Positions 6,425 through 49,856 of a DNA stretch of 52,421 bases are shown piece after piece; the stretch's first letter is position 1, and the number at the start of each line of letters is the position of its first letter. The position numbers were made by a program, and so were the translations under genes. A model generated the notes under the pieces. That model worked only from the letters and a program-made list of their open reading frames with translations. It did not search any database and was not told where the DNA came from. This DNA comes from Candidatus Iainarchaeum sp. (GTDB taxonomy: Archaea > Iainarchaeota > Iainarchaeia > Iainarchaeales > Iainarchaeaceae). The stretch lies in assembly GCA_043812975.1 (NCBI GenBank), contig JBDRLP010000001.1, forward strand, positions 1 through 52,421, in the 5' to 3' direction.

Positions 6425-7296
6425 TCTGCAGCCTCCGCTTCCACAGTTTCCCCCTTCGGGGACTTCGCGTCTGTGGGCTGCGATGCACCCTGCTTTGCAG
6501 GGGGCTGCTCTTCAGTTTTTTCTGAAGTTTCCTCTTTCTTAGTTTCTTTTACTTCTTTTTTCTCTTCAGCTTTAGGTTTTTCTGGTTTTACTTCTACCTT
6601 AGGTTCTTCTTTTTCTTTCTTAGCTTCCGGCTTTTCAGTTACTTTTTCCTTTTTCTCTTCAACCCCTTTACCCTTCCCTTCGGTCAGGGCACCTTTGGCG
6701 GGACTCCCTTTGGTCGCAGGGGCATCTTTCTTTTCGCCTGTTTGAGTTTCTGCATCTTTTCCTGCTGATTCCTCAAACTCTTTCTTTAAATCTTTCTTTG
6801 GTTTTTCATTTTCAATCTTTAATGGTTTTCTATGCCAGCCAAGTTCTGAAACCTCATCTATATGAACCAAATAACCTGGTGCTGAAATTCTTTTTCCTTT
6901 AAGTGAAATATGTCCGTGAACAATGAACTGCCTTGCCTGCTTTGAAGTATTTGCAAGACCTTTTCTCAGGATTATTGTTTGTAATCTTTTTTCAAGTAGT
7001 TCCTCAACTTTCAATCCTAAAACATCATCTAATATAGCGTCAGATTTTACAAGATTGATTTTTCTCAAACCACTCATTAGTTCTTTTTCTCTTACCATTC
7101 TTGTTTCAAGAGGTAATGCCAAAAGACTTCTAGCAATTCGTCTTTTATTCCTTAACCAGGTTGTGTGTTTTCTCAATTCTTTCTTGTTTTTCAAACCATA
7201 AAAATTAACGAGTTTTCTCTCTGATACAAGTAATTGTTTATCCCACTTTTTTCTTGGGGTGCTGTATTGTTTTCTTCTTTTTTTAGGATCGCCCAT
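6421..7296 (-). CDS. rps4: 30S ribosomal protein uS4 with about 120 aa Lys/Glu-rich C-terminal tail carrying two repeat insertions
   Basis: MGDPKKRRKQYSTPRKKW, LEKRLQT, ARQFIVHGHI. Confidence 0.97.
   Translation of the reverse strand: MGDPKKRRKQYSTPRKKWDKQLLVSERKLVNFYGLKNKKELRKHTTWLRNKRRIARSLLALPLETRMVREKELMSGLRKINLVKSDAILDDVLGLKVEELLEKRLQTIILRKGLANTSKQARQFIVHGHISLKGKRISAPGYLVHIDEVSELGWHRKPLKIENEKPKKDLKKEFEESAGKDAETQTGEKKDAPATKGSPAKGALTEGKGKGVEEKKEKVTEKPEAKKEKEEPKVEVKPEKPKAEEKKEVKETKKEETSEKTEEQPPAKQGASQPTDAKSPKGETVEAEAAE
6441..6508 (+). repeat. Palindromic element copy, in frame in the uS4 tail (encodes QPPAKQGASQPTDAKSPKGETV)
   Basis: CCACAG/CTGTGG stem with nested CCCC-TTC-GGGG hairpin, plus CCCTGC-TTT-GCAGGG. 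Confidence 0.85.
6676..6719 (+). repeat. Palindromic element copy, in frame in the uS4 tail (ATKGSPAKGALTEG)
   Basis: GGCGGGACTCCCTTTGGTCGC, near-identical to the copies at 21444 and 36326. Confidence 0.85.
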
Positions 7297-7302
7297 TTTT
7301 CA

Positions 7303-7923
7303 TCACTTTTTTTTGTCCTTTTGTGTATCCTTCTTTGTTACTCCTACAGTAGTACCTTTATTCCTGTGAGTAGACTTATTTCTCTGGCCTCTTACAGGAA
7401 GCTTCCAAGTATGCCTTAATCCTCTGTAAGACTTGATTTCCCCAAGCCTCTGAAGGTCAGTTCTCAGGCCAAATTCAAGTTCACCCATAATTCTGTGAGT
7501 GTCTTCTCCTGTTGTAAAATCATTTTGTCTGTTAAGGCTCCAAGCAGGAATATTAAATTTTGTTGGGTTAAGCACAATCTGTTCGAGCTTTTTTACTTGT
7601 TCTTCTTTAATCTTTCCCAGTTTTTCATTTCCTGAAATTCCGGTTTCTTTTTCAAACACAATAGTCATGTTCTTAGCCATTCTCAAGCCAATCCCTCTGA
7701 TTTTAGTCAAAGCTCTTACTATTGTTGAGCTTCCGTTTAAATCATTGTCAGCAACCCTGACTATAAGTTCAACCTCTTCTACTGGTTTTTGAAATTTCTT
7801 TTCTGCAACCGTTGCGTCGGTGGATGCCCTTTGGGCGGCGTCCGCCTTCGGTAGGACTGCCTTGTCCGTAGCTTTTGCTTCATTTTCGTTAGCTTTTTCT
7901 TGTTCTTTTTTTTCTTCAGTCAT
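7303..7923 (-). CDS. rps13: 30S ribosomal protein uS13 with N-terminal extension
   Basis: ALTKIRGIGLR, SYRGLRHTWKLPVRGQRNKS. Confidence 0.97.
   Translation of the reverse strand: MTEEKKEQEKANENEAKATDKAVLPKADAAQRASTDATVAEKKFQKPVEEVELIVRVADNDLNGSSTIVRALTKIRGIGLRMAKNMTIVFEKETGISGNEKLGKIKEEQVKKLEQIVLNPTKFNIPAWSLNRQNDFTTGEDTHRIMGELEFGLRTDLQRLGEIKSYRGLRHTWKLPVRGQRNKSTHRNKGTTVGVTKKDTQKDKKK
7807..7860 (+). repeat. Palindromic element copy, in frame in the uS13 N-terminus (AVLPKADAAQRASTDATV)
   Basis: ACCG-TTGCGT-CGGT plus GTCCGCC-TTC-GGTAGGAC; matches the copy at 13703. Confidence 0.88.
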
Positions 7924-7927
7924 TTTA

Positions 7928-8143
7928 TCACTCTATTTTTACCAGTTCTTCTTTTGTAATTTTTTTTGCATCAATGGTTTTTCCCGTAGGAAACAAATGT
8001 AAAATATTACATTTTCTCTTTTTCACTTTTGCTCCTTCAACCAAAACATAATTATCATCAACTTTTTTAATCACTACAACCTTTTTCCCGGCTTCTCTTC
8101 CGGCTGTTTTTACACAAATGCTTCCAATGATTATTGAACTCAT
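7928..8143 (-). CDS. rpl14e: 50S ribosomal protein eL14
   Basis: GSICVKTAGREAGKKVVVI, KRKCNILHLFPT. Confidence 0.93.
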   Translation of the reverse strand: MSSIIIGSICVKTAGREAGKKVVVIKKVDDNYVLVEGAKVKKRKCNILHLFPTGKTIDAKKITKEELVKIE

Positions 8144-8974: not shown

Positions 8975-8988
8975 AAATAAAACCTCTT

Positions 8989-9026
8989 AGAGAGAAAAAA
9001 GGGAGTATGAAGATTACATAATCTTC
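8989..9026 (-). terminator. Candidate terminator or hairpin after secY
   Basis: GAAGATTA-CA-TAATCTTC inverted repeat (9009-9026), followed on the minus strand by CTCCCTTTTTT. Confidence 0.4.
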
Positions 9027-9038
9027 CACCGATTCCTT

Positions 9039-10463
9039 TTAAAAGCTCCCTCCCTGTCCGAATATTCTTCCAAGCATTGGGTGCATTTCCATTAATTGTT
9101 CCTTAGCTAATTCCTCATACATCCTGTAAACTATTCCTACTGTTAGTAAAATTCCAGTTCCTGAACCTATTGCGCCTGTCAAATCAGCAAATCCTGCTAA
9201 TATTCCGACAAATGCAGATCCAAGGATTGTTATTGTTGGAATATACCTGTCCAAAACCTGTTTTATTACTCTTGGATCTCTTCTAAAACCAGGGATATAC
9301 ATTCCGGCTTTTTGTAACTGGTCAGCAACCTTATCAGGTCCCTGGCCTCCAATTTCAATCCAAAGTCTTCCGAATATTATACATCCAACTGTAAGAATAA
9401 TAAGGTATAATAGTGCGTGGATTATGCTTCCGCCCAAACCAATTATTTGTAAAGTCGTAATGCTTTGAATCATCTGGTCAAACACTAGCGGACTTAATCC
9501 CTCAAGCAGAACCTGAGAAAATAAACCATATGGCGGAATAACTATTTGTGCAATTCCGTTCAATATGTCTCCAAGTATTGGTACGCCTTTTGCTAATGCG
9601 GCCCATATGCTGAAGTTAGCAAATAATGCTACTGCTAATATTACTGGCATGTTGGAAACGTAAAGGAACTTCACAGGATATCTTCCGCCTGTTCCTCTTC
9701 TTCCCATGGTTATTGGTATATTGACATGTATGCCCTCTGCATAAACAACTACAAAGAAAACAATTAATGTAAAAATTATTGGAAGTAAAGCAACAATGAA
9801 TGCGCTTGCAATATTAGTTCCGATTTCTCTGAAGAACAAGAAGAACAATCCTGATCCTTCAGTTAGTGAAATGTTCATTGCTAAGTCTAATGGCGAGAAT
9901 AGTCTCCAGATTATTCCTCCTGCAACTCCCCCTGCAATAAATAATCCTACTCCAGAGCCGATTCCGTACTTTGAAACAACCTCATCGAGATATAGAAGAA
10001 CTATTGATCCTAAAGCAACCTGTACTATAACAAATACAAACATTCCTTCTGCCGGAGCCAAAAAACCTGTAAGAGTGTAAACAATTGCTTCAAAGAAACT
10101 CAAAATAATTGTTAATAACTTTTGAACACCACTGAACTTTGCTTTATCTTCTTGATTTGAAAGATCTAATTTTACAATGCCTCCTCCAATCAGCAATTGT
10201 AATACAATTGATGCAAGTACAATAGGGCCGATTCCTACTGTTATTAATGAACCAATTTGTGATGCAAGTATAACCTGTAACTGTTCTAACTGGCCAGCGC
10301 TTTGTGCATTTAAACCAATAACAGTGATGTTTCCCATTATGAAAAACACAAGCAGAACTATTCCTGTCCAAATAAGTCTTTTCTTTAACGGCTGTTTTTC
10401 TTCAGGCGCCTTTACTTCAGGCAATAAACTGTAAATAGGCTGTAAAACTTCAAATAAACCCAT
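9039..10463 (-). CDS. secY: Preprotein translocase SecY
   Basis: GIGPIVLASIVLQLL, SKYGIGSGVGLFIA, YPVKFLYVSNMPVIL, IPGFRRDP, GTGILLTV. Confidence 0.98.
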   Translation of the reverse strand: MGLFEVLQPIYSLLPEVKAPEEKQPLKKRLIWTGIVLLVFFIMGNITVIGLNAQSAGQLEQLQVILASQIGSLITVGIGPIVLASIVLQLLIGGGIVKLDLSNQEDKAKFSGVQKLLTIILSFFEAIVYTLTGFLAPAEGMFVFVIVQVALGSIVLLYLDEVVSKYGIGSGVGLFIAGGVAGGIIWRLFSPLDLAMNISLTEGSGLFFLFFREIGTNIASAFIVALLPIIFTLIVFFVVVYAEGIHVNIPITMGRRGTGGRYPVKFLYVSNMPVILAVALFANFSIWAALAKGVPILGDILNGIAQIVIPPYGLFSQVLLEGLSPLVFDQMIQSITTLQIIGLGGSIIHALLYLIILTVGCIIFGRLWIEIGGQGPDKVADQLQKAGMYIPGFRRDPRVIKQVLDRYIPTITILGSAFVGILAGFADLTGAIGSGTGILLTVGIVYRMYEELAKEQLMEMHPMLGRIFGQGGSF

Positions 10464-10953: not shown

Positions 10954-11415
10954 CTAGTTCATACTAATTATAAGTTTGTTAATTTCTTCTCCTCGATAGC
11001 CAAGTGCTCCACCTACTGTGAATGGCTTTTTTATACCTGCTCTCTTGTGTCCTTTTCTGGGAGGATGTAATCTTATCACAGGAACAATTCCTAAATCCTT
11101 AAGTTTTACTTTTCCTTCGATAACACTTTTAGCTAATTCTTCAAAGCTGTTAATTTTCTTTTCTTTTAAAAATTCAAGTATAATTTTCTTTTTGCCTTCT
11201 AATCTTCCTCTTTTTGCAAGAACCTTTGTAAGAGTTTCTTCGTTTATTTCCCCGAAAGCAACGTAATCTTTTATTTTTTCAACCATTTTTTTGGAAGGGT
11301 TATCATCTTTGACCAAAACCATGTGGTTTGGTCTGAACAATCTTAAATTTTCCATAGTGTATGTTAAACTAGGGTTAACGTTCACAGTTCCTCTTATTCT
11401 AATAACTGCTATCAT
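10954..11415 (-). CDS. rpl30: 50S ribosomal protein uL30
   Basis: IAVIRIRG, RLHPPRKG, GALGYRGEEINKLI. Confidence 0.96.
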   Translation of the reverse strand: MIAVIRIRGTVNVNPSLTYTMENLRLFRPNHMVLVKDDNPSKKMVEKIKDYVAFGEINEETLTKVLAKRGRLEGKKKIILEFLKEKKINSFEELAKSVIEGKVKLKDLGIVPVIRLHPPRKGHKRAGIKKPFTVGGALGYRGEEINKLIISMN

Positions 11416-11501
11416 CTTTTAGCCTCCAATTCAACAGTTGCGTCTGTTGGGTACGCATACGTCCACCCTATCTGCGATAGGGTATAAATATTCAAATTCA
11501 T
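11412..11501 (-). CDS. Bridge mini-ORF, 29 aa (MNLNIYTLSQIGWTYAYPTDATVELEAKR)
   Basis: ATG overlaps the uS5 stop (ATGA); its TGA overlaps the uL30 ATG. Translation is inferred, not shown. Confidence 0.5.
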   Translation of the reverse strand: MNLNIYTLSQIGWTYAYPTDATVELEAKR

Positions 11502-11517
11502 CTTTTAGCCTCCAATT
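11412..11517 (+). repeat. Junction element (11432-11497) flanked by a 20-bp direct repeat of the uS5/uL30 junction
   Basis: TCATCTTTTAGCCTCCAATT at 11412-11431 and 11498-11517. Hairpins CAACAG-TTGCGT-CTGTTG and ACCCTATC-TGC-GATAGGGT. Confidence 0.92.
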
Positions 11518-13150: not shown

Positions 13151-13265
13151 TAACGGACACCTCCGTTAGCGAGGTGTGCACCTCATTGCAAAACCTTCGG
13201 TTTTGCGATGCCCCGTATCCGAAGGATACAAGGTTGGTAGCACATACATAAAGTTTCAAATTCAT
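13143..13265 (-). CDS. Bridge mini-ORF, 40 aa (MNLKLYVCATNLVSFGYGASQNRRFCNEVHTSLTEVSVNG)
   Basis: ATG overlaps the eL32 stop; TAA overlaps the eL19 start (ATGGATAA). Confidence 0.45.
   Translation of the reverse strand: MNLKLYVCATNLVSFGYGASQNRRFCNEVHTSLTEVSVNG
13151..13261 (+). repeat. Junction element with SD-containing hairpins between eL32 and eL19
   Basis: CACCTCCG...GAGGTGTGCAC...GTAGCAC shared with the copies at 39044 and 40958. Nested GCAAAACC-TTC-GGTTTTGC and GTATCC-GAA-GGATAC hairpins. Confidence 0.85.
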
Positions 13266-13897
13266 GGGTTTAACACCTTGATTCCTTTTTCTATTGCCTT
13301 GTCAACTATTGCCAGTTTTTTCTTTCTTCCGAGTCCTGAAGCAACTCTTATTGCGTGTTTGTCAGGAACATTGTTTATTTCCTGGATTGTTTTAACATTA
13401 AATTCTCTATATCCGCTTGGGTGAATGTCCCTAATTTCTTTAGGCGTCCTGAAACCCTCTTTTGGGGTATAACCATCACACATTTCGTGCTTTACGTCAA
13501 TTCCTCTTGGGAATCTCCATTTGTTCCACTTCGGGTTACTTTTCTTTCTAAGGCTTCTTTTTCCAAACCTTCCTCTGAAAGTAGGAGTTCCCTGTTTCTG
13601 GTTAACTTTTCTTCTTGTTTTAGCAACCGCAGCGTCGGTTTTAATTTGAACCTTTCTGCTCTTTTTCACTTTCTTTGGTTTTGCTTCTTTTGAATCTTTA
13701 ACTACCGTTGCGTCGGTAGGGTGCGCGTCCGCCTTCGGCAGGACTGCTTTAACATCTTTTTTAGCATCAGTTTTTTTTGTTTTAGTTTTAGGTGCAGCTG
13801 CTTTAATTTTCTCTTTAACAGCAACCTTTGCTTTAGGTTTTTCTTTTACTGTTTCTGCTTTTTTAGTTTCTTTTTTTTCTGTTTTCTTTTTAACCAT
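13262..13897 (-). CDS. rpl32e: 50S ribosomal protein eL32 with about 95 aa Lys-rich N-terminal extension
   Basis: PTFRGR, KWRFPRGID, IRDIHPSGYRE. Confidence 0.95.
   Translation of the reverse strand: MVKKKTEKKETKKAETVKEKPKAKVAVKEKIKAAAPKTKTKKTDAKKDVKAVLPKADAHPTDATVVKDSKEAKPKKVKKSRKVQIKTDAAVAKTRRKVNQKQGTPTFRGRFGKRSLRKKSNPKWNKWRFPRGIDVKHEMCDGYTPKEGFRTPKEIRDIHPSGYREFNVKTIQEINNVPDKHAIRVASGLGRKKKLAIVDKAIEKGIKVLNP
13696..13753 (+). repeat. Palindromic element copy, in frame in eL32 (AVLPKADAHPTDATV), flanked by 7-bp direct repeats
   Basis: CTTTAAC at 13696-13702 and 13747-13753; insert plus one repeat is 51 nt (17 codons). CTACCG-TTGCGT-CGGTAG and GTCCGCC-TTC-GGCAGGAC hairpins. Confidence 0.9.
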
Positions 13898-15024: not shown

Positions 15025-15533
15025 TCTACTTCAACCCCGAACTTTTCCTTTACAAAATCTATTGCCTCGTTTTGATGAATCAAGTGTGAATGTAAAATCT
15101 TTGACTTGCCAATTTTTCTTCTTTTAATCCTGTAACCAGGTCTTTCCAAAGTAACCAATACATCAAACCCCTTGATTCCGAGCTTTGGATCATACTTTGC
15201 TTTTGGTAAATCAATATATTCTTTTACTCCAAATCCGAAATTTCCCTGTTTGTCAAAACTCTTTTTCTTTATCTTCTTATCTTTTGCAAGGAATGCTTCA
15301 GTAAGGAATATCTCTGCTTTGTTTCCTCTAAGTGTAACTTTTGTGCCGATAGTTAATCCTGGTCTTAAACCCCAGTCAGGTTGTTTAACCTTACACTTTG
15401 TTAGTGTTGGCTTTGCTCCTGTAACTTTTTCGAGAATAGTCGTAGCTTTCTTTAATTCTTCACCTTTCTGACCAACACCCATGTTGATTGTGACTTTCTC
15501 TACTTTGATTTTTTTCATTTTATTATCCGCCAT
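15021..15533 (-). CDS. rpl5: 50S ribosomal protein uL5
   Basis: [36 protein letters not shown]. Confidence 0.97.
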
Positions 15534-15680
15534 AATAATCACTCTGCTTCCACCGTTGCGTCACCCTTGCGGGTACTCCCTTCGGTCGCGGCGGAGTACG
15601 CGTCCATCTCGCCCGTTAGGGATGGACTCGGTAGGACTTGCTCATTTCGTTTGCATTTCACCATAATAATCACTCTGCTT
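15530..15680 (+). repeat. Composite junction element (15550-15660) flanked by a 20-bp direct repeat of the eS4/uL5 junction
   Basis: CCATAATAATCACTCTGCTT at 15530-15549 and 15661-15680; contains several family modules. Confidence 0.92.
15539..15664 (-). CDS. Bridge mini-ORF, 41 aa (MVKCKRNEQVLPSPSLTGEMDAYSAATEGSTRKGDATVEAE)
   Basis: Starts at the ATG of the upstream repeat copy and ends exactly at the duplicated eS4 stop. Confidence 0.5.
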   Translation of the reverse strand: MVKCKRNEQVLPSPSLTGEMDAYSAATEGSTRKGDATVEAE

Positions 15681-16398: not shown

Positions 16399-16837
16399 CT
16401 TCTTTCACCTTCTCCTTTTTATTTGCTTTAACTTCTGTTTTTGCCCCTGCACCCTCACGGGTATTCCCTTTGGTCACAATTTTTTTACCTTTTAATCTTC
16501 TGTCATCTTTATCCTCAATATTTACAATCATCAAATTACTCGCTTTGAAAGGAATCTGAATTTCAGTGCCGTCTAATCTTTTTCTTGTTATTCCTTCAAT
16601 AAGCACCTGTCTTTTTTGTCTTAAAATTGCAGTAATATGCCCCTGCTTTCCGACAAACTTTTCATTCCCTCTCATTATCTTTACTGTGTCTCCTTTTCTT
16701 CCATCCAGACTTCTTTTTCCAATGCTTTCCTTCAATTCCTTGCTTAAGTGCATTGCGAATTCTTTTTGCTGTAAGTGTAATGGTTTGGTGTAATGCCATT
16801 TTCTCTGTTTTTTTGGTTTTGAACTTGTTAATGTCAT
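16388..16837 (-). CDS. rpl24: 50S ribosomal protein uL24
   Basis: SSKPKKQRK, RKGDTVKIMRG, PFKASNLMI. Confidence 0.96.
   Translation of the reverse strand: MTLTSSKPKKQRKWHYTKPLHLQQKEFAMHLSKELKESIGKRSLDGRKGDTVKIMRGNEKFVGKQGHITAILRQKRQVLIEGITRKRLDGTEIQIPFKASNLMIVNIEDKDDRRLKGKKIVTKGNTREGAGAKTEVKANKKEKVKEDGK
16444..16477 (+). repeat. Short palindromic element copy, in frame in the uL24 tail (VTKGNTREGAG)
   Basis: CCCCTGCACCCTCACGGGTATTCCCTTTGGTCAC is the 21444 copy lacking its middle hairpin. Confidence 0.8.
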
Positions 16838-18340: not shown

Positions 18341-19198
18341 TCACTCTTTTTTATCCTCAGCTTTTTCTTCTTTAACTTCTTCCTTTTTTTCTTCAGGCTT
18401 CTCTTCCTTTGCTGGTTTTTCCGCTTTTTTCTCTTCTTTTTTAGGTTCTTTCTTTTCCTTAACTTCAGTTTTTTCTTTAGTTTCCTTTACTTTTTTCTTC
18501 TTTTCTTCTTCTTTTGAAATTTCTTTAGTTGCATCTTTTGTTTCTTTTTCAGTTTCCTCAGTTTTTTCTTTTTGTACTTCGGAAGCTTCTTCTTTTCCTT
18601 TAATATAATCTGTAATCTTTTCCTTATCCGGGAAAACCGTGTCAGGATGCACAATTTTAATTTTAATCCCGATTGCTCCTACTTTAGGGTAAGCATCTGC
18701 TTTACCATAATCAACAAGTCTTGCTTGCTCTCCGACTTTTTTCAAATAACCATAAGCAATTCTCTGTTTTCTTTTTCTTCCCGCTTTTCCAGCAATCTTT
18801 CCGCTTAAAATAATTTCTAACCCCTGCGCTCCGGCTTTTTTGGTTTCGTTTACTGATTTAAACACAATACTTCTCCATGAGAATCCTCTTTCAATAAGAG
18901 CTTTCATCTTGTTTGCAACAGCTTGTGCATCAAGTTCAGGATTTTCAATTTCTCTAATCTCTAATTGCGGGTTATCAATGCCAAATCTGCTTCCGATTGT
19001 TTCTGTTAATTGTGTAATGTTGGAACCGCTTTTTCCGATTGCAAGCCCTGGTCTTGTAACATTAACAACAATTCTTGTTACTAATGGGGTTTTCACAATC
19101 TCTGATTTTGTAAAGCCGGCCCTTTCAAGTTCTTTTGAAAGATAATCGTCCAGTTCAAGTTTTTTTAATCCCTGTTCAATGAAATATTTTTCTATCAT
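18341..19198 (-). CDS. rps3: 30S ribosomal protein uS3 with Lys/Glu-rich C-terminal tail
   Basis: KTPLVTRI, RPGLAIGKSG, ERGFSWR; start at 19198 overlaps TAATG. Confidence 0.97.
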   Translation of the reverse strand: MIEKYFIEQGLKKLELDDYLSKELERAGFTKSEIVKTPLVTRIVVNVTRPGLAIGKSGSNITQLTETIGSRFGIDNPQLEIREIENPELDAQAVANKMKALIERGFSWRSIVFKSVNETKKAGAQGLEIILSGKIAGKAGRKRKQRIAYGYLKKVGEQARLVDYGKADAYPKVGAIGIKIKIVHPDTVFPDKEKITDYIKGKEEASEVQKEKTEETEKETKDATKEISKEEEKKKKVKETKEKTEVKEKKEPKKEEKKAEKPAKEEKPEEKKEEVKEEKAEDKKE

Positions 19199-19394
19199 TA
19201 TTTGGCCTCCATCCACAGTTTCGGCTGTGGGCTACGATAACCCAAGCTCCTTTCAGTCGCATGGGTTTGGCTCACTCCGTTCGCTATAATCATTATTTGG
19301 CCTCCATCCACAGTTTCGGCTGTGGGGTGCACGTACCATCTTCGCTTGTGCTCGATGCTACTTAAAATATTAAAAATCATTATTTGGCCTCCAT
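19194..19394 (+). repeat. Two tandem junction elements between three copies of a 19-bp uL22/uS3 junction
   Basis: ATCATTATTTGGCCTCCAT at 19194-19212, 19289-19307 and 19376-19394. Both inserts begin CCACAGTTTCGGCTGTGGG. Confidence 0.93.
19198..19380 (-). CDS. Bridge mini-ORF, 60 aa (MIFNILSSIEHKRRWYVHPTAETV...KLWMEAK)
   Basis: ATG overlaps the uL22 TAA; reads through both inserts; its TAA overlaps the uS3 ATG. Confidence 0.5.
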   Translation of the reverse strand: MIFNILSSIEHKRRWYVHPTAETVDGGQIMIIANGVSQTHATERSLGYRSPQPKLWMEAK

Positions 19395-20989: not shown

Positions 20990-21067
20990 TTATCTAACTC
21001 CAACGCCGTTTGCGATCGGCGGTACCGCGCCCACCTTTGGTAGGGCAGATGTATTTTTTATAGCCAT
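20990..21067 (-). CDS. Bridge mini-ORF, 25 aa ([25 protein letters not shown])
   Basis: ATG overlaps the uL23 TAA; its own TAA lies 1 nt before the uL2 ATG. Confidence 0.5.
   Translation of the reverse strand: MAIKNTSALPKVGAVPPIANGVGVR
21001..21047 (+). repeat. Junction element between uL23 and uL2
   Basis: CGCCG-TTTGCGAT-CGGCG plus GCCCACC-TTT-GGTAGGGC; closely matches the copy at 34207. Confidence 0.85.
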
Positions 21068-21546
21068 TATATTACACCTAACTTTGTAGCTATATCATCA
21101 GCTTTATATTTTTTGTCAATTGTAACAATTGCTTTCTTTCTTGATTTCATATCCTTAATGATGTTAACTGCGTTGACCTTAACTTTGTAAAGTCCTTCTA
21201 TTGATTTTTTTATGCTGATTTTATTAGCTTTTTTATCAACAATAAATGTAAGTTTGTTTTCTGCTTCAATCATGTTAACTGCTTTTTCTGTAATTAAAGG
21301 ATACTTAATAATTGTCAAACCTTCAATTTCTGCTTCAATTTCTTCTAAAGTTTTTTTCCCTTTCTTAACTTCCTTTTTCTTTTCTTTCTTTTCCTCTTTT
21401 TTATAATCTTCTTTTTTTGCTTCGGCTTTATGTGTGTGCTTTTCCCCTGCACCCTTACGGGTACCTTCGGCGGGACTTCCTTTGGTCGCAGCTTTCTTAG
21501 CTTCCTTTTTTGTTTTTACTTTTTTTTCTGTTTTTTTCTTAGCCAT
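21067..21546 (-). CDS. rpl23: 50S ribosomal protein uL23 with Lys/Glu-rich N-terminal extension
   Basis: [30 protein letters not shown]. Confidence 0.96.
21444..21491 (+). repeat. Palindromic element copy, in frame in uL23 ([16 protein letters not shown])
   Basis: GCACCCTTACGGGTACCTTCGGCGGGACT identical to the copy at 36326. Confidence 0.92.
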
Positions 21547-21556
21547 TTCAATTCAC

Positions 21557-22459
21557 CTAAGCTTTTGCCTCACCCGAGCGTGCTCTTCCTCTGCGAGGAC
21601 CTAAGGGTCGGGAGGGAGCGTCCACCTTCGGTAGGACTTCCTTTTTTACTTCTTTCTTTTCACCAGCTAATTGTTTAATTGCATTCTCTGACCAGAGAGT
21701 TAATCTTCCCGGTAGAGTTCCTGGTGCTAAAAGATCAGCATTAATATTAACCGCACTTATAATGTCAACCCCTTCAAGGTTTCTTGCTGCTTTGTAAACA
21801 TTCTCTGGGTTTTCAACTACAATCAAAACACTTTTTCTTTTCTTGTATTTTCTTCCTCTCTTTTTTCCTTTTCCAGGTCTTAATTGTCTTTTACTCAAAG
21901 CCTTTTCTACATCCTGATAAACATCAATTGCTTTCAAAGCATCTCTAATATCTTTTGTTTTTGCAAGGGTTTCAAGCTTTGCTTCAACAACAATCGGAAA
22001 CTCTAATTTTTCTCCAAACTTGTGGCCTCTTTCTTTTACTAATTCTTTTTTTCCTGTTGCTGCGATTGCTGATTCAGTTGCCTGTCTTTTTTCTTTTTTA
22101 TTTATTTTTTCTTCCCATTCTTTGTTTGGCTTTGGAGGGTGTGCTTTTGGGCCTCCAACAACAGCCGGAATACTAGCAACGTGTCCTGAAAGGATTCCTC
22201 TTCTGTTTTTCAATCTTGGCTTTCTAGCATGGCCAACGTTAATTGTTCTGTGAATATTAGGTTTGTGCCTAGCTCCGATATATTCCGCAGTGTTTGCCCT
22301 TCCTGCTTCAGGTTTAGGGAAACTGTTTTGAACACCAGCAGACTGAATTGCCTGCACTGCTCTTTTAATAAGTGCTAGATTAATATCCGCAGAGAACTGC
22401 TTTGGTAAAGTAATATCAGGACCTTTTGTCCCATCCAAACCTAAAACACTAGCTTTCAT
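21557..22459 (-). CDS. rpl4: 50S ribosomal protein uL4
   Basis: VVGGPKAHPPK, KINKKEKR, RPGKGKKRGRKYK, LLAPGTLPGRLT. Confidence 0.97.
   Translation of the reverse strand: MKASVLGLDGTKGPDITLPKQFSADINLALIKRAVQAIQSAGVQNSFPKPEAGRANTAEYIGARHKPNIHRTINVGHARKPRLKNRRGILSGHVASIPAVVGGPKAHPPKPNKEWEEKINKKEKRQATESAIAATGKKELVKERGHKFGEKLEFPIVVEAKLETLAKTKDIRDALKAIDVYQDVEKALSKRQLRPGKGKKRGRKYKKRKSVLIVVENPENVYKAARNLEGVDIISAVNINADLLAPGTLPGRLTLWSENAIKQLAGEKKEVKKEVLPKVDAPSRPLGPRRGRARSGEAKA
21571..21638 (+). repeat. Palindromic element copy, in frame at the uL4 C-terminus (EVLPKVDAPSRPLGPRRGRARSG)
   Basis: GCGTCCACC-TTC-GGTAGGACT module plus CCTC-TGC-GAGG hairpin. Confidence 0.85.
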
Positions 22460-25762: not shown

Positions 25763-25773
25763 GTTTTCAACCC

Positions 25774-26151
25774 CTAGCTAATCCATGAAGGATAATCGTA
25801 GTATCTGGTGTTGTAATTATATCCATTATTACTGGCGTAGTAGTAATAGTCTGGATAATAATCGTTGTAATAATTTGACCCGTAATAGTTCCCGTAATAG
25901 TTAGGGTAATAGTTGTTGTATCTCCCGTAATAGTCAGGAGCATATGACCAATAACTATCAGGGTAATATGAATTGTAATAGTAGCTGTCGTACTGGTATG
26001 GGGCTACATAGTAGTCCACGTAATAATCGTAATAATTTCCCGCATAAACTGTGTAGTGGTTTCTGTAAGCGCCATCATACACGTATGGGTAATAAGCACT
26101 TGCCTGTGCTGCAAAAAGAATTATTAATCCAAGAATCAACCATTGTTTCAA
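25774..26151 (-). CDS. Secreted Tyr-rich low-complexity protein (125 aa)
   Basis: Signal peptide MKQWLILGLIILFAAQASA; 44 Tyr in 106 mature residues; TTG start with GGGGG SD and upstream TTTATATA. Confidence 0.8.
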   Translation of the reverse strand: MKQWLILGLIILFAAQASAYYPYVYDGAYRNHYTVYAGNYYDYYVDYYVAPYQYDSYYYNSYYPDSYWSYAPDYYGRYNNYYPNYYGNYYGSNYYNDYYPDYYYYASNNGYNYNTRYYDYPSWIS

Positions 26152-34186: not shown

Positions 34187-34342
34187 TTATCTGATTCTTA
34201 CTTCTTCAACGCCGCTTGCGATCGGCACCCTTACGGGCACATGCGGTACCGCGTCCACCTCACTTTGTTCGGTAGGACTTAGTTCCTTGTTCGCAAACTT
34301 TTTCTAATAATTCTTTTCATCACCTAATTCTTACTTCTTCAA
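34187..34342 (+). repeat. Composite junction element (34207-34294) between nusA and rps12, with a duplicated NusA C-terminus
   Basis: ATTCTTACTTCTTCAA at 34194-34209 and 34327-34342; modules shared with 21001 and 21444. Confidence 0.88.
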
Positions 34343-35063: not shown

Positions 35064-36425
35064 TTATTTTTTCATTACAAGAGTTACCCTGCCTGTTCCA
35101 ACCTTAATAGGCTGACCAACTATAATGTTTTCAACAACACCTTCAAGAGTTTCTATTTCTCCCTTGAATGCTGCGTCTAACAAGTGTTTTACTGTTTCCT
35201 CAAATGCTGCTCTTGCGAAAGGACTTGCTTTTCCTCTTGTGATTCCTGTTCTTACAATTCCTCTGATTTCTCCGTCAAAGCACATTGAATCAGCTAATAG
35301 CATTATATGTCTTATGTCAACTGCAATACTATTATCCTTCAGAACTCCAGATAATTCATTTACAATCGCCATTCTTCCTGCTTCAATTCCCAATACTTTG
35401 CTGATTTCTTTAATGTCATTAGTGGTTGTTTTTGAACCATTAATTTCCGGCAGTTTCACAATTGCTTTTAAGTTAGTGCCTCTGGTTTTAATGACTTTCT
35501 CGTTGTTCTCATCTATAAGAATAACTTTTTCAATTCCTCTGATTCCCTGAATCCTTGTTGATTTCAGTTTGTTCATGGTTCTTCTGATTTTTAAAAGTGC
35601 TTCATTTTTGAAAATAAAATCAAGCAAATACTTGTCTTTTCTTTTCCCCTCCATCTTTATGTGCTTATTGATTTTTGCAACAAGCTCATCAATATCAACA
35701 TTTCTTGATTCGATTGCTTCCTTATCAAGTTCAATTGTAACTTTTCCCTTGAATAAATCTTCATGAATTTTAATAACATCATCAATTCTTACATCAATTA
35801 ATGTTTTTGCAAAAGCATCAAGTTTTTTCTCATCTTTATTTAATTCTTCATCATCGATGTAAATTGTCATTATAGGATATTTAGCTTTTAATCTCCCGTC
35901 AACAATTTCTTCAACCCTCTGGATTCCTGATCCAACACTTACTTCTGCAGAACCCGCATAGTGTTTTGTTCTAAGTGTCAATTGTGTTCCTGGTTCCCCA
36001 AGACTTTGTGCAGTAATAATTCCTACTGCTTCTCCAGGTTCAACCATGCTTTTTTCATATCTTTCTTTAACTTGTGAAAATAGTTTTTCTTTTTCCTTGT
36101 CATTAATTTTTAATTCATTAGCGACTGTTTCAAAATCCATTAATACTTTTTTAGGAATTCCTTCTGTTTCAAAAAGATCTCCTTGTACAAATACTCTTTC
36201 AACTTCCACTACTTCTTTTTTGGTTGTTTTTTTTGGTTTCTTAACTGTTTTAGTGGTTTTTTTAGCTGTGGGTTTTGCCTTTTCACTCTTATCTTTGGTT
36301 GTGGTCTTTTTCATAGTTTTCTTAACCCCAGCACCCTTACGGGTACCTTCGGCGGGACTCCTTTTGGTCGCTGCTTTTTTTGTTTCTTTCTTTTCTTTTT
36401 TCTTGGTTTCTTTTTTTGCAACCAT
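35064..36425 (-). CDS. rpoA2: RNA polymerase subunit Rpo1C (A'') with Lys/Thr-rich N-terminal extension
   Basis: [38 protein letters not shown]. Confidence 0.97.
36326..36372 (+). repeat. Palindromic element copy, in frame in Rpo1C ([16 protein letters not shown])
   Basis: Near-identical to the copy at 21444. Confidence 0.92.
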
Positions 36426-39043: not shown

Positions 39044-39129
39044 TACGCGGTCACCTCCGCGTGTGAGGTGTGCACTTCGCTTGGGCTCAGTAGCACTGGC
39101 TCACATCCGTTCGCAAAATCATTTTTCAT
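39043..39129 (-). CDS. Bridge mini-ORF, 28 aa (MKNDFANGCEPVLLSPSEVHTSHAEVTA)
   Basis: ATG 4 nt after the rpoB' stop, with GGTG SD; its TAA overlaps the rpoA' ATG. Confidence 0.5.
   Translation of the reverse strand: MKNDFANGCEPVLLSPSEVHTSHAEVTA
39044..39115 (+). repeat. Junction element with SD-containing hairpins between rpoB' and rpoA'
   Basis: CACCTCCG..GAGGTGTGCAC..GTAGCAC plus CTCACATCCGTTCGC module. Confidence 0.85.
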
Positions 39130-39133
39130 ACAA

Positions 39134-40957: not shown

Positions 40958-41015
40958 ATGCGGAGACCTCCGCATTCAGAGGTGTGCACCTGCGGTAGCA
41001 CCTATTAAAATTCAT
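40950..41015 (-). CDS. Bridge mini-ORF, 21 aa (MNFNRCYRRCTPLNAEVSAYG)
   Basis: ATG overlaps the rpoB'' stop; TAG overlaps the rpoB' start (ATGGTTAG). Confidence 0.45.
   Translation of the reverse strand: MNFNRCYRRCTPLNAEVSAYG
40958..41000 (+). repeat. Junction element with SD-containing hairpins between rpoB'' and rpoB'
   Basis: ATGCGGAG-AC-CTCCGCAT and GAGGTGTGCACC..GTAGCAC. Confidence 0.85.
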
Positions 41016-42478: not shown

Positions 42479-42600
42479 TAAACAACCACCTCGCCGTTTT
42501 CCCACTTCGTGGACTTCGCGACCGGCGGCACCGAAGCACACTGCTTCGCAGTGGGCGTGCTCGCTTCGCTCGCAAAATAATTGCCGATTATACAACCACC
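42477..42600 (+). repeat. Junction element (42492-42573) between rpoH and rpoB'', flanked by a 14-bp near-perfect duplication
   Basis: ATTA(A/T)ACAACCACC at 42477-42490 and 42587-42600. Hairpins CCAC-TTC-GTGG and CACTGC-TTC-GCAGTG; CTCGCTTCGCTCGC module. Confidence 0.88.
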
Positions 42601-46473: not shown

Positions 46474-46480
46474 TTGAGAT

Positions 46481-47493: not shown

Positions 47494-47504
47494 TAAAAAG
47501 AAAA

Positions 47505-48674: not shown

Positions 48675-48783
48675 GTTTTTCACTCTAATAAGGTAGAAAT
48701 TAATACTTATAAATCATAGTGGGGGTTAATCGGCGTTCTATAAGTTTTAAAATCTTGAAAGATGATAAAGTATAAGTGTTAAT

Positions 48784-49677
48784 ATGGAATTACCAAAAGT
48801 AAGCCCCAAAGTAAAGGCAATTAAAGCAAAATTGGCTTCTGCAAAACTACTCGGGATAGTTGTAAAAAACTCTTTACAATTCAAACTCAGAAGAAAAGCT
48901 CTACGACGTTTTAAAGCAACAGAATTTGACACTATTGTTGTCGATATGGATGGTACGCTTTACAAGAGCGATGCAAACCTGGAAGCCTTGAAAGTTGTTT
49001 ATCCTGAATCTGAAAATGGGTTAGTAAAAGGCGAGGAACTTTACGATTCTATTCTTTCAAAAATAGCTTCCGGAACGTATAGTGTTGAACAAGCTATTGT
49101 TGAGGGAAATAAACTTTTGATGAAAAAAAACATGAAAAAGAAGGATTTTTCAAAAGTACTTGATAAAATAAAGTCCGGGATAAGAAAACCTTTGGTGAGG
49201 TCTCTTAAGAAAATGAAAAAATCAGGAAAAACAATTGTGTTAGCAACACTTTCATCAAAAGAATTCGGCGAACTTCTGAATTCTTATCTGAAAAAAGAAT
49301 TTGATTTTTCTTTTGATTTAATTGTAGGCACACAACTTAAGTATGATGTTCAGGGAAAAATTATCGGAGTTAAAAGCATGGTAAGTACAAAAGACACAGT
49401 ATACAAAAAAATCTATGTTAAATCAAAACTCTCAGCTATTCGTGCTGCTCTAGAAGAACAAGGAAAAGAACTGAATTTAAAAAAATCAATCCTTATTACT
49501 GACAGTTATTCTGATATTGACCTTGCAAAAATGTTTGTAACTGTTTTAATACAACCAACAAGATCAACCACTCCGCAAAAAGTTTCCCAAAGATTAAAAT
49601 TAGCTGATTATATTTTCCCTGAAAAATATTTGCAGACTAATTTAGAATCACTTATTCTAGGTCCAGAAATAGAGTAA
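48784..49677 (+). CDS. HAD superfamily hydrolase (SerB-like) with basic N-terminal extension
   Basis: Motif I DMDGT; LATLSS; KLSA; ITDSYSD. Confidence 0.82.
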   Translation: MELPKVSPKVKAIKAKLASAKLLGIVVKNSLQFKLRRKALRRFKATEFDTIVVDMDGTLYKSDANLEALKVVYPESENGLVKGEELYDSILSKIASGTYSVEQAIVEGNKLLMKKNMKKKDFSKVLDKIKSGIRKPLVRSLKKMKKSGKTIVLATLSSKEFGELLNSYLKKEFDFSFDLIVGTQLKYDVQGKIIGVKSMVSTKDTVYKKIYVKSKLSAIRAALEEQGKELNLKKSILITDSYSDIDLAKMFVTVLIQPTRSTTPQKVSQRLKLADYIFPEKYLQTNLESLILGPEIE

Positions 49678-49679
49678 CT

Positions 49680-49856
49680 AAAATTCAATTTTTTCCAGTT
49701 CTACACCGGCTTCTTTCAGCACCACAGTTGCCCCCTTCGGGGATCCCTGTGGGACGGCTGTGGGGTGCGCGTACCATCTTCGTCACGCCTAGTAGGCGGG
49801 ACTCGATGCTACTCAAAATTCAATTTTTTCCAGTTCTACACCGGCTTCTTTCAGCA
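49680..49856 (+). repeat. Palindromic element (49722-49814) flanked by a perfect 42-bp duplication of the dCMP deaminase 3' end
   Basis: AAAATTCAATTTTTTCCAGTTCTACACCGGCTTCTTTCAGCA at 49680-49721 and 49815-49856; core matches 19308-19375. Confidence 0.93.

Follow-up and report, generated by a model that had tools for sequence, protein, structure and literature searches.

A 52,421-nt stretch of DNA from a marine DPANN archaeon of the Iainarchaeia (the whole stretch being referred to here as the window) carries a family of GC-rich hairpin sequences that are very probably small non-autonomous insertion elements, spreading by copy-and-paste and transparent to translation. Nineteen insertion loci were found between positions 6436 and 49812, all on the minus strand, within and between ribosomal-protein and RNA-polymerase genes. 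Empty sites occur at ten of these places in collinear relatives (86-89% nucleotide identity), which identifies the inserts in the window as insertions, and copies at operon junctions lie between target-site duplications (18-44 nt), by which a stop codon, a Shine-Dalgarno sequence and a start codon are restored. Together with the absence of transposase, reverse transcriptase or Cas1 domains from the non-ribosomal ORFs of the window, these data support the proposal, made in a preliminary description of this DNA, of a non-autonomous family with no mobilising enzyme encoded in the window.

Scanning for 30-nt windows of at least 63% GC yielded 28 islands against a background of 29-40% GC. One is a tRNA-Leu and about seven are ordinary conserved coding segments (e.g., L15, L14, S12 and a FAD-binding motif); the others group into the 19 loci, bearing out the earlier count of about 19 copies within 52 kb. 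All loci are assembled from common hairpin modules, and each of the five modules described earlier was found: HP2 (formerly module a), HP1 (b), ACCC-GYAA-GGGT (c), GCGACC-GAA-GGGAG (d) and the GTGCAC/GTGCTAC box (e). In the canonical core, HP1, GTCC(T)ACC-GAA-GGTGGAC, is followed by a GCGYACC linker and by HP2, whose 6-bp stem covaries and whose loop is (A/C)CGCAA. Elements measure about 45-115 nt. Read in the mRNA sense, they start at or overlapping (A)TGA, continue with an AT-rich leader (often ATTTKAAWA, sometimes with a GCGAACGRAGTGAGCMA box) and one or more GC-rich hairpin modules, and end exactly at the last paired base of HP2. Length and sequence vary more in the 5' leader than at the 3' end, and singlet copies lack terminal inverted repeats. 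Newer modules nest within the loops of older hairpins; the nesting noted earlier was seen in the covariance-model alignment at 6441, 15550, 34237 and 49722.

Inserts within coding regions are listed first (L001, L005, L008, L297, L298 and NZBD01 denote relatives; D7 and D9, direct-repeat families).

6436..6515, minus strand: S4 C-terminal tail insert A (model hit 6441-6503; L001 gaps of 26 and 19 nt), HP2 (CCACAG..CTGTGG) with CCCC-GAA-GGGG nested in its loop, then a CCCTGC-AAA-GCAGGG hairpin; translation QPPAKQGASQPTDAKSPKGETVE.
6663..6756, minus strand: S4 C-terminal tail insert B (66-nt L001 gap; D7), family-2 modules (GCGACC-AAA-GGGAGTCCCGCC-AAA-GGT...); translation ATKGSPAKGALTEGKGKG.
7806..7857, minus strand: S13 N-terminal insert (model hit, 31.1 bits), HP1, an extra hairpin and HP2; translation AVLPKADAAQRASTDATV, a peptide shared with the closest S13 homologue (P0001) alone and missing from 14 others.
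13702..13748, minus strand: L32e N-terminal HP1+HP2 core (model seed, 71.3 bits; net 39-nt L001 gap), in frame as AVLPKADAHPTDATV, with a possible flanking 7-8-nt repeat, GTTAAAG.
16440..16480, minus strand: L24 C-terminal family-2 insert (D7), translation VTKGNTREGAGA; L001 has a different element (HP1+HP2) at the same place.
21440..21495, minus strand: L23 N-terminal family-2 insert (D7 and D9), translated into 16 residues and 88-91% identical to the RpoA'' copy.
21565..21641, minus strand: L4 C-terminal insert (model hit, 27.8 bits), HP1 plus GCTCCCTCCCGA.. hairpins, translation EVLPKVDAPSRPLGPRRGRARSGE; this subfamily is also present at L147.
36324..36368, minus strand: RpoA'' N-terminal family-2 insert of 45 nt (45-nt in-frame L005 gap; D7), translated into 16 residues.

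The remaining inserts lie at operon junctions or, in the last case, behind a gene.

11432..11497, minus strand: S5/L30 junction insert, 66 nt (empty site in L001), with perfect 20-nt duplications, AATTGGAGGCTAAAAGATGA, at 11498-11517 and 11412-11431; bridging mini-ORF MNLNIYTLSQIGWTYAYPTDATVELEAKR.
13152..13254, minus strand: L32e/L19e junction insert of the type with its own Shine-Dalgarno sequence (103-nt L001 gap), in the order ATTTGAA.. GTGCTACC.. two long hairpins .. GAGGTGCACACCTC .. GGAGGTG .. ATG; 40-codon mini-ORF across the junction, folding z-score -4.6.
15550..15660, minus strand: S4e/L5 junction insert, 111 nt (empty site in L001), extra modules nested in the loops of both HP1 and HP2; 20-nt duplications, AAGCAGAGTGATTATTATGG, at 15661-15680 and 15530-15549; bridging mini-ORF ending ..VLPSPS..ATEGSTRKGDATVEAE.
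19213..19288, minus strand: L22/S3 junction insert B, 76 nt (uninterrupted single junction in NZBD01), GCGAACGGAGTGAGCCA box, hairpin and an HP2 copy in a different reading frame.
19308..19375, minus strand: L22/S3 junction insert A, 68 nt (uninterrupted single junction in NZBD01), leader TTTTAATATTTTAAG, module GTAGCATCGAG..CGAAGATGGTAC and HP2; the 19-nt duplication ATGGAGGCCAAATAATGAT occurs three times at this junction (19376-19394, 19289-19307, 19194-19212), and A and B share a 60-codon ORF opened by the duplicated S3 start and closed by the duplicated L22 stop.
20995..21066, minus strand: L23/L2 junction insert (model hit, 38 bits), variant HP1 (GCCCTACC-AAA-GGTGGGC), GCGGTACC and HP2 (CGCCG-ATCGCAAA-CGGCG); decayed duplication of about 17 nt at 21067-21084 and 20990-21006; bridging mini-ORF of 25 residues.
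34209..34319, minus strand: NusA/S12 junction insert, 111 nt (empty site in L005), expanded HP1 loop and ACCC-GTAA-GGGT nested in HP2; flanking target duplicated over 22 nt (34320-34341 and 34187-34208), with TGA closing the upstream copy and TAA the downstream one; no bridging ORF.
39046..39133, minus strand: RpoB'/RpoA' junction insert, own Shine-Dalgarno type (the L008 junction is only 17 nt here), GCGAACGGATGTGAGCCA box, GTGCTAC, GTGCACACCTC, GGAGGTG; bridging mini-ORF MKNDFANGCEPVLLSPSEVHTSHAEVTA.
40960..41011, minus strand: RpoB''/RpoB' junction insert, own Shine-Dalgarno type, ATTTTAATAGGTGCTACC GCAGGTGCACACCTC .. GGAGGTC; 21-codon mini-ORF across the junction.
42480..42587, minus strand: RpoH/RpoB'' junction insert, about 105 nt, nested C-GAA-G hairpins; its open frame, which begins at a TTG overlapping the RpoH stop codon, is that of RpoB''.
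49722..49812, minus strand: kinase/dCMP-deaminase insert, 91 nt, past the gene's stop, GTAGCATCGAG.. module and HP2 with a hairpin nested in it; flanking target duplicated over 44 nt (49813-49856 and 49678-49721), with TGA closing the upstream copy and TAG the downstream one.

Comparison with relatives, all data being from metagenome assemblies, placed individual events. Against L001 (88.8% nucleotide identity, 16.9 kb), clean insertions stand out at S5/L30, S4e/L5, L32e/L19e, the L32e N-terminus and the S4 C-terminus; against L005 (86%), at NusA/S12 and the RpoA'' N-terminus; and against NZBD01, the two at L22/S3. The relatives have insertions of their own, L001 at the L24 C-terminus, L005 in RtcB (51 nt, in frame), and L008, L297 and L298 at RpoB''/RpoB', where their duplication-flanked elements are independent. 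Repeated hits at the same junctions could be old insertions homogenised by gene conversion rather than repeated transposition. Older common copies (S13, S2 N-terminus) are decaying.

The duplications are 18, 18, 19, 19, 20, 20, 21, 22 and 44 nt long; one is the 3' end of a tRNA. Duplication scores of 12-32 were obtained for 9 of 25 model hits, most of them exceeding 13, the 99th percentile for 300 random positions, among which 18 was the highest score. A clear duplication is present in only about half of the loci: junction inserts with their own Shine-Dalgarno sequence and most coding inserts have none, or one of at most 7-8 nt. With the upstream duplicate the upstream gene keeps or receives a stop codon, and with the downstream duplicate the next gene keeps its Shine-Dalgarno sequence and start codon. 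The preliminary description had overlooked these duplications.

The reading frame is likewise preserved. Net lengths of the coding inserts (39, 45, 51 and 195 nt) are all multiples of 3, and the inserts are placed in Lys-rich protein tails. At junctions, 9 of the 11 inserts contain a mini-ORF linking the upstream stop to the downstream start, versus about 3 expected from shuffles, an excess that is modest because GC-rich sequence is poor in stop codons. As predicted from sequence, each mini-ORF would span the interval from a duplicated start, overlapping the upstream stop, to a duplicated native stop. Mini-ORF ends copy the C-terminus of the upstream protein (LEAKR, MEAK, AE), and a 52-aa mini-ORF at the L298 junction was called independently. 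HP1 and HP2 share one frame (VLPK[VA]DA..PT[DA]ATV) in all but one of about 11 translated copies. Since the element is open in one frame, it is read within a disordered Lys-rich tail in some copies and as a mini-ORF in others. That junction copies are translatable as fixed-frame bridging mini-ORFs had also escaped the earlier description.

A covariance model built on HP1+HP2 has 12 hits in the window at E<=1.5. Every one falls on the minus strand, which is the gene strand, and the plus strand has none, in agreement with the single orientation reported before; the plus-strand genes at 43-46.5 kb and 48.8-49.7 kb, said to be free of copies, contain no island and no hit. Outside the window, about 11 copies are co-directional with the adjacent gene or tRNA and two are opposed. 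Archaeal two-hairpin copies score 29-73 bits, as compared with at most 27.3 bits in 732 kb of GC-rich bacterial DNA preselected for an HP1-like 18-mer; the covariance scan proposed earlier thus distinguishes the family from GC-rich controls, and the family is not a composition effect. Paired cells make up 97% of the alignment and 13 of 13 pairs have changed on both sides, in an alignment itself fitted to the model; HP2 stems differ (CCACAG, CTACCG, CAACAG, AAACCG) around an unchanged loop. Minimum-free-energy z-scores (+0.3 to -4.6) and the number of perfect GC-rich hairpins (20, versus 11.3 +/- 3.3 in shuffles) are weak measures, and the case therefore rests on the sequence family, covariation and comparative indels rather than on folding energy. 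A point missing from the preliminary description is that nearest-neighbour folding gives no advantage to the mRNA-sense strand, where G.U pairs (7) are in no excess over A.C (5).

Several Iainarchaeia MAGs and marine metagenomes contain copies of the family, adjoining tRNAs and diverse housekeeping genes (PolD, ArgRS, eRF1, RNase P p30 and NMNAT among them). The HP1 20-mer was found at about 19 AT-rich metagenome loci, HP1 being identical across distant contexts, and elements are also present in relatives with 43-51% GC. Viral contigs lack the family, and no Rfam family matches the elements. The family is confined to a clade of Iainarchaeia from marine and aquatic settings.

Among known systems, the closest analogies are with Rickettsia palindromic elements (RPE) for insertion into coding sequence, with MIRU for behaviour at junctions and with mitochondrial GC clusters for composition. 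RPE are short non-autonomous palindromic repeats, intergenic or in frame within housekeeping genes (PMC2229807, PMC10969869). As judged from descriptions, the likeness lies in the coexistence of intergenic and in-frame copies and in an added peptide that the protein tolerates, the in-frame hosts here being S4, S13, L4, L23, L24, L32e, RpoA'' and, in a relative, RtcB; RPE and the M. jannaschii coding repeat, both named as comparators before, are apt for these copies. However, RPE are single long stem-loops of 105-146 bp with terminal inverted repeats, whereas the elements described here (45-115 nt) consist of independent local hairpins without such repeats and show long variable duplications and a strict orientation along the genes.

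MIRU reportedly insert at operon start codons, with a coupled ORF and in tandems (attributed to Supply et al., 1997). Such insertion, an internal ORF translationally coupled to the downstream gene and the occurrence of tandems are documented (PMC12548453). The bridging mini-ORFs and two junctions with tandem double insertions are the counterparts here; in contrast, MIRU are bacterial, are not made of GC-rich hairpin modules and have not been reported inside conserved coding sequences. To our knowledge, an 18-44-nt target duplication re-creating stop, Shine-Dalgarno and start is not a described MIRU feature either.

Mitochondrial GC clusters and double-hairpin elements (yeast GC42, Allomyces DHE, sponge RHE; PMC4478555, PMC2800124) are likewise GC-rich hairpin modules in AT-rich genomes, sporadic between close strains, merged and shuffled, with stems under selection and no known enzyme of their own. 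They differ in their organelle hosts, in flanking repeats of 2-3 nt (AG or ACT) and in having no described fixed reading frame or operon-junction logic, and the elements here extend to relatives at 43-51% GC. Yersinia YPAL/RU-2 lacks the usual terminal inverted repeats, has duplications of 3-26 bp and targets sites at or near dyad symmetries (PMC2229807). By description, this recalls the insertion of new modules into existing hairpin loops, but YPAL is 168 bp, bacterial and mostly intergenic.

Insertion would proceed by the filling in of a staggered or gapped break, the HP2 hairpin defining one end and microhomology at TGA the other, presumably with no element-encoded enzyme. What is copied could be DNA, by template switching where a fork has stalled, or RNA, by reverse transcription for which a nick in the target DNA serves as primer, as in LINE/SINE elements; we lean slightly toward DNA. 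SINE-like retroposition, in which element RNA, perhaps from operon transcripts, would be reverse-transcribed at a target nick, with priming at or beside HP2 and a variable second-strand nick offset generating variable duplications, seems unlikely. It would suit the long variable duplications (18-44 nt), the precise 3' end at a hairpin with conserved loop and covarying stem, the more variable 5' leader, the missing terminal inverted repeats, the enrichment in highly transcribed operons and beside tRNAs, and the L167 5' junction, exactly at a tRNA mature 3' end. Against it, no reverse transcriptase was seen at the loci examined, which cover a small share of the genomes, there is no A-rich tail, and sense-strand G.U pairs are not in excess. 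We know of no LINE- or SINE-type retroposon in prokaryotes. For the GC clusters of yeast mitochondria, too, a route through RNA has been put forward (PMC4478555).

Mechanisms of the REP/RAYT, IS200/IS605 and classical MITE kinds are disfavoured by duplications this long and variable and by the missing terminal inverted repeats. There is only a slim chance that the hairpins are REP/REPIN-like or IS200/IS605-derived, with an HUH tyrosine transposase (RAYT/TnpA) acting in trans to move them as single-stranded DNA. The short GC-rich hairpins with C-GAA-G and GNRA-type loops, the strong one-strand bias, GTAGC preceding some copies and the occurrence of singlets with occasional inverted doublets (the tRNA-adjacent L167 and L175 elements have an inverted HP2-like 5' hairpin, as in a REPIN) are in keeping with it. 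But HUH Y1 transposition leaves no target-site duplication, as opposed to the 18-44 nt seen at ten insertions; REP are extragenic and free of duplications, and the elements here, tested for both features, show neither (7 of the 19 window loci are intragenic), so that the REP/REPIN comparison made earlier fits poorly. Nor is any tetranucleotide, apart from TGA, conserved 5' of the insertion points. Classical MITEs, which derive by deletion from a DDE-transposase insertion sequence and are mobilised in trans, deserve slightly less credence still: the elements are short, non-coding, multicopy and duplication-flanked, yet singlets have no terminal inverted repeats, and duplication length, fixed within each insertion-sequence family, here varies from 18 to 44 nt. 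Among archaea, Sulfolobus, Halobacterium and Haloquadratum have MITEs (PMC10969869); Yersinia YPAL, whose duplications also vary in length (3-26 bp), offers a precedent of unknown mechanism (PMC2229807). Finally, vertically inherited RNA structures (intercistronic mRNA stabilisers, processing sites or ribosomal-protein autoregulatory leaders) are the least probable source, since the position at junctions of highly expressed operons, the stem covariation, the constancy of HP1 in distant contexts and CACCTC..GGAGGTG arrangements that could mask the Shine-Dalgarno sequence in some junction inserts are outweighed by presence/absence differences between 86-89% identical genomes, flanking duplications, the same modules in coding tails, in RtcB and after tRNAs or unrelated genes, the decay of older copies and the lack of an Rfam match. 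As the primary explanation this reading is contradicted, though individual copies may possibly have been recruited to a function secondarily.

Altogether, the data favor insertion elements transparent to translation, tolerated because the ribosome can read them and because stop and start signals are duplicated at the insertion site. Only insertions leaving translation and translational coupling intact would survive, and such a filter would explain why copies share one orientation and one frame and why the duplications are long.

The window carries an archaeal supercluster of genes for ribosomal proteins, SecY, RNA polymerase and elongation factors, nearly all on the minus strand and of 29-40% GC; beyond 43 kb, both strands carry genes for riboflavin, lipid and other housekeeping functions. 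The nearest homologues of its S13 and RpoA'' proteins belong to 'Candidatus Diapherotrites' / Iainarchaeum MAGs, mostly marine. Scanning with a 30-nt window identified 28 islands of at least 63% GC. With one tRNA-Leu and a handful of ordinary conserved coding segments set aside, the remaining islands resolved into 19 loci between positions 6436 and 49812, in line with the roughly 19 palindromic repeat copies announced in the preliminary description, all five of whose module types were recovered. On the mRNA strand, the best-defined unit consists of a first hairpin, HP1 (GTCC(T)ACC-GAA-GGTGGAC), a GCGYACC linker and a second hairpin, HP2, with a 6-bp stem and an (A/C)CGCAA loop. A further module, GTAGCATCGAG, was recognized beside HP1+HP2 and family 2, and hairpin loops hold nested modules. 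Direct-repeat detection returned the D7 repeats of family 2 (five copies of 33 nt), a similarity over 102 nt between the N-termini of L23 and RpoA'', and a perfect 38-nt repeat upstream of S3.

A covariance model of the 43-nt HP1+HP2 core matched the window 12 times, always on the minus strand and never on the plus strand, as expected from the single orientation claimed initially. When 732 kb of natural GC-rich bacterial DNA, preselected for an HP1-like 18-mer, were scanned as a control, the best score was 27.3 bits, compared with 29-73 bits for archaeal copies that have both hairpins; GC-rich DNA does not match equally well. The alignment of all matches, itself fitted to the model, has 97% of its cells paired, and each of the 13 pairs shows changes on both sides. 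Raw seeds include the HP2 stems CCACAG/CTGTGG, CTACCG/CGGTAG, CAACAG/CTGTTG and AAACCG/CGGTTT around a constant loop. Orientation agrees with transcription in all 12 model matches of the window and in about 11 of 13 copies elsewhere. A GTAGC-HP1-GCGAA variant opposed to the neighbouring genes, found at two loci (L152, 75-110; L154, 1322-1369), provides the only clear exceptions. An orientation test based on islands and loop motifs at all loci was discarded in favour of the model matches because ordinary coding segments contaminated it. Both the thermodynamic folding z-scores and the number of perfect hairpins in the window (20, against 11.3 +/- 3.3 in block shuffles) were weakly significant, and we therefore lean on neither. 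Searches of Rfam 15, at the gathering threshold and at E<=5, gave no match on the elements, only the tRNA-Leu passing.

Comparison with relatives exposed the corresponding empty sites. A contig of Iainarchaeum ARS1427 (NZBD01000004, loci L001 and L041) is collinear with positions 1-21000 of the window and 88.8% identical in nucleotide sequence across the 16.9 kb aligned; proteins are 88-97% identical. The extra segments of the window are clean and coincide with the GC islands. The comparison, extended to the related locus L005, concerns window loci outside 20995-21641 (L2-L23-L4 region).

Extra sequence in the window relative to related loci
S5/L30 junction: +86 nt relative to L001
S4e/L5 junction: +131 nt relative to L001
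L32e/L19e junction: +103 nt relative to L001
L32e N-terminus: +39 nt relative to L001
S4 C-terminal tail: net +195 nt relative to L001
L22/S3 junction: two tandem extra segments relative to the NZBD01000004 contig
NusA/S12 junction: +134 nt relative to L005 (86% identity)
RpoA'' N-terminus: +45 nt relative to L005

Turnover is rapid between genomes that are 86-89% identical. The copy at the N-terminus of S13 is common only to the closest relative and missing from 14 other S13 homologues, and the L24 C-terminus carries a canonical HP1+HP2 in L001 and a different module in the window. In L005, RtcB has a 51-nt in-frame insert (9802-9852) away from its termini; a separate element, a mini-ORF of 29-32 aa homologous to this insert, lies at the S12/S7 junction of the related loci L297 and L298. 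The RpoB''/RpoB' junction holds different elements in four lineages, two of them in tandem in L298.

Elements at the RpoB''/RpoB' junction
Window: 40960-41011
L008 (related locus): 1478-1549
L297: about 5270-5353
L298: 5267-5495

The L24 C-terminus and the L32e N-terminus were each hit more than once. Either such sites attract insertions as hot spots, or gene conversion has remodelled old insertions there, a process that could account for part of the recurrence. The N-terminal tail of S2 (window 3632-3668) contains a decayed, AT-enriched family-2 copy, GCTGCGACAAAAGAAAATCCC, translated KAATKENP; a GC-rich form, GCTGCGACCAAAGGGAGTCCC, occupies apparently the same place in the related locus L299 (10426-10457). 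This pair suggests that, as copies age, they decay into the kind of Lys/Glu-rich tail that characterizes these ribosomal proteins. All element data come from metagenome assemblies; an assembly artefact was rejected, as independent assemblies repeatedly show this architecture.

Direct repeats of host sequence, 18-44 nt in length, flank ten insertions, and the duplicated sequence is single-copy in the relative wherever a relative is available.

Target-site duplications
S5/L30: 20 nt
S4e/L5: 20 nt
L22/S3: 19 nt, present three times around the two inserts
NusA/S12: 22 nt
Kinase/dCMP-deaminase stop: 44 nt
L008 RpoB''/B': 19 nt
L130 (element-bearing locus): 18 nt
L141 (element-bearing locus): 18 nt
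L167 (element-bearing locus): 21 nt, identical to the tRNA 3' end
L298, two inserts: about 20 and 27 nt

On a duplication score whose 99th percentile at 300 random positions is 13, those of the tabulated duplications that were scored reached 12-32; about half of the loci have no clear duplication. The 3' end of the element is the last paired base of HP2, which abuts the duplication directly (offset 0 in most cases). At the other side, the junction falls directly past a stop codon or ATGA overlap in at least 7 of 10 operon-junction and gene-end insertions, and, in L167, directly past the discriminator base of the tRNA. Four sites (NusA/S12, the dCMP-deaminase site, L008 and L298) have an upstream duplicate ending in TGA and a downstream original ending in TAA or TAG, a difference which suggests that (A)TGA either is part of the element's 5' end or marks a microhomology junction. 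Terminal inverted repeats are lacking: the elements open with an AT-rich leader (5') and close with HP2 (3'), ends that are not complementary, and they fold as two or more independent local hairpins. An inverted HP2-like hairpin was seen at the 5' end of two tRNA-adjacent copies only. Altogether, the elements are insertions with variable host duplication and one end set by a hairpin. Before insertion at window 49675-49721, the HAD-hydrolase and kinase/dCMP-deaminase genes converged stop to stop (TAA abutting CTA, plus strand), an arrangement that may explain the unusual length of the 44-nt duplication.

The elements preserve reading frames and translational coupling. Annotated coding sequences contain seven of the 19 window loci. 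The coding inserts occupy Lys-rich, non-conserved ends of S4, S13, L4, L23, L24, L32e and RpoA''. Compared to empty sites, coding inserts add a net 39, 45, 51 or 195 nt, all multiples of three, and elements inside S4, S13, L32e, RpoA'' and RtcB are translated in frame. Their interpretation as spliced inserts (BHB introns) was rejected because each is open and a multiple of 3 nt. At junctions between operon genes, an open frame bridges the insert in 9 of 11 cases, against about 3 expected from dinucleotide shuffles. Its start codon, mostly one duplicated by the insertion, overlaps the upstream stop in most cases and otherwise lies within 12 nt of it; the frame then runs through the hairpins to a stop codon that overlaps or adjoins the downstream start. 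At junctions flanked by duplications, the stop used is the duplicated native stop and the mini-ORF ends with a copy of the last residues of the upstream protein (..LEAKR, ..MEAK, ..AE); thus, the phase of insert plus duplication always restores the native stop. The ORF at L22/S3 has 60 codons, one of 52 aa was called independently at the L298 junction, and MNLNIYTLSQIGWTYAYPTDATVELEAKR exemplifies the peptides encoded. HP1 and HP2 are read in one frame, VLPK[VA]DA..PT[DA]ATV, in about 10 of 11 translated copies, the exception being HP2 of L22/S3 insert B (PQPKLW); family-2 modules always have one and the same peptide reading.

A second type of junction insert (L32e/L19e, RpoB''/B' and RpoB'/A') has no duplication and supplies a GGAGGTG Shine-Dalgarno sequence of its own, with CACCTC ahead of it. 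Copies at 13155-13184, 39046-39075 and 40960-40999 (minus strand) read (GAGGTG)CACACCTC, followed 5-7 nt on by GGAGGTG. With this layout of anti-Shine-Dalgarno and Shine-Dalgarno segments, the ribosome-binding sites of L19e, RpoA' and RpoB' could be masked or unmasked.

How do these elements relate to known kinds? The duplications and the lack of terminal inverted repeats exclude, on the features tested, both mobilization by HUH enzymes (RAYT or IS200/IS605) and ordinary MITEs derived from DDE transposases. REP/REPIN sequences, one of the comparators proposed initially, fail on two counts: they are extragenic and insert without target duplication, whereas seven window loci and the copy in RtcB of L005 are intragenic and ten insertions carry 18-44 nt duplications. 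Classical MITEs have terminal inverted repeats and a target duplication of fixed length; here, lengths are 18, 18, 19, 19, 20, 20, 21, 22 and 44 nt. Their variable duplications and defined 3' end are shared by the elements with non-LTR (SINE-like) retroposons. No A-rich 3' tail is present. The comparison to Rickettsia palindromic elements (RPEs) holds in part: like them, the elements fuse in frame into conserved protein genes (PMC2229807, PMC10969869), but RPEs form one 105-146 bp stem-loop with terminal inverted repeats. Variable duplications also occur in YPAL (3-26 bp; PMC2229807), and modular GC hairpins that merge and shuffle are common to mitochondrial GC clusters and double-hairpin elements (PMC4478555). 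At start/stop junctions, where 9 of 11 inserts carry a coupled ORF, the elements behave like mycobacterial MIRUs, whose insertion at a start codon yields a coupled internal ORF (PMC12548453). Traits of RPEs, MIRUs, mitochondrial GC clusters and YPAL come together in the family, which by defining features is a member of none. Sequence homology to MIRUs is not to be expected across domains of life. We rate the family as a small non-autonomous palindromic insertion element whose insertion signature is unusual and whose logic of harmlessness is clear. Literature searches turned up no account of elements like these from DPANN or Iainarchaeota; a 2024 review of prokaryotic MITEs places archaeal ones only in Sulfolobus, Halobacterium, Haloquadratum and Desulfurococcus (PMC10969869).

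Selection would filter the insertions, retaining those that leave stop, Shine-Dalgarno and start signals intact and let ribosomes pass. Junction duplications would then measure at least 18 nt because they must span both signals, and the uniform orientation and frame would result from the same filter. As to chemistry, a staggered or gapped break would be filled in, with HP2 setting one end of the insertion and TGA microhomology the other. Copying may run through DNA, by template switching at forks that stall on hairpins, or through RNA, by reverse transcription that starts from a nick in the target. On the strand of action, counts are 7 G.U versus 5 A.C, RNA and DNA folds of the two element strands are equal, and GC skew in the window tracks gene orientation. 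The 52-kb window encodes no reverse transcriptase, transposase, Cas1 or RAYT (Y1 HUH) protein, upholding the view that no mobilizing enzyme is present there; domain annotation of about 250 kb of related loci, from incomplete genomes, revealed no reverse transcriptase either. Within the window, a nuclease domain occurs only in an intein of EF-2 (29364-33086, minus strand), as a LAGLIDADG homing endonuclease. This intein, 510 residues long and a 1530-nt insertion relative to L005, is missing in L005, L008 and L298 and present in L297. Intron-encoded endonucleases have been proposed as helpers of yeast GC clusters (PMC4478555), and by analogy the intein endonuclease is a candidate helper, only a lead.

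We consider it improbable, though worth stating, that the family represents a new kind of mobile unit in prokaryotes, one that ties its insertion to gene expression itself and is copied in by way of an RNA or R-loop intermediate. If so, joining would occur at the 3' end of an RNA or ORF, exactly past the stop codon or tRNA discriminator base, and the element would supply its own (A)TGA stop/start overlap. Orientation, frame and preference for highly expressed operons would be properties of the mechanism and not of selection alone. In effect, such an element would install itself as a cassette for translational coupling, and it would be a source of the Lys-rich tails that DPANN ribosomal proteins carry.

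Of 48 loci recovered from metagenomes with the HP1 20-mer, about 19 are AT-rich archaeal contigs, where elements neighbour PolD, ArgRS, eRF1, RNase P p30, the QPRTase/NMNAT junction, S15 and tRNAs. Viral contigs gave no match to the HP1 18-mer or 20-mer and only noise with a 15-base HP2 pattern. A scan of genome contigs with GTCCTNCCGAAGGNNGAC proved too loose, nearly all of the 120 loci returned being chance matches in GC-rich bacteria; the only real match was Iainarchaeum ARS1427 (NZBD01). A protein search with a concatenated 64-aa query of element peptides yielded no candidate. Eight metagenome loci of 37-46% GC (L153, L156, L162, L164, L170, L172, L176 and L139) contain the exact HP1 20-mer alone, following a long T-rich tract and adjoining a second hairpin (GAGAGGGTGACAACCCTTCAC or similar), with no ORF start downstream. 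About 100 nt upstream lies an inverted HP1-like palindrome, GTCCTACC-KSC-GGTAGGAC, in all four loci with enough upstream sequence; it has one arm mismatch in L153 and L162.

Two adjoining window ORFs of 615 and 125 aa (23915-26151, minus strand) have signal-peptide-like N-termini and segments extremely rich in Tyr and Asn, and neither has a Pfam match. Relatives carry other surface-type proteins at a nearby position between EF-2 and EF-1alpha (Big_2 in L005, Big_7/PKD in L298).

These results indicate that not even the ribosomal-protein and RNA-polymerase operons, the best conserved and most compact part of a reduced DPANN genome, escape invasion by selfish DNA. The invasion is survived by re-creation of the stop, Shine-Dalgarno and start signals and by an element that can be translated in one frame. 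Duplications so long and variable, with no terminal inverted repeats, speak for an insertion mechanism not described for archaea. For annotation, the elements give rise to spurious start codons and mini-ORFs. They explain concretely how lineage-specific extensions at the N- and C-termini of universal proteins arise, which affects the use of such insertions as phylogenetic markers. They also break the assumption that the concatenated marker genes of DPANN MAGs evolve by substitution only.
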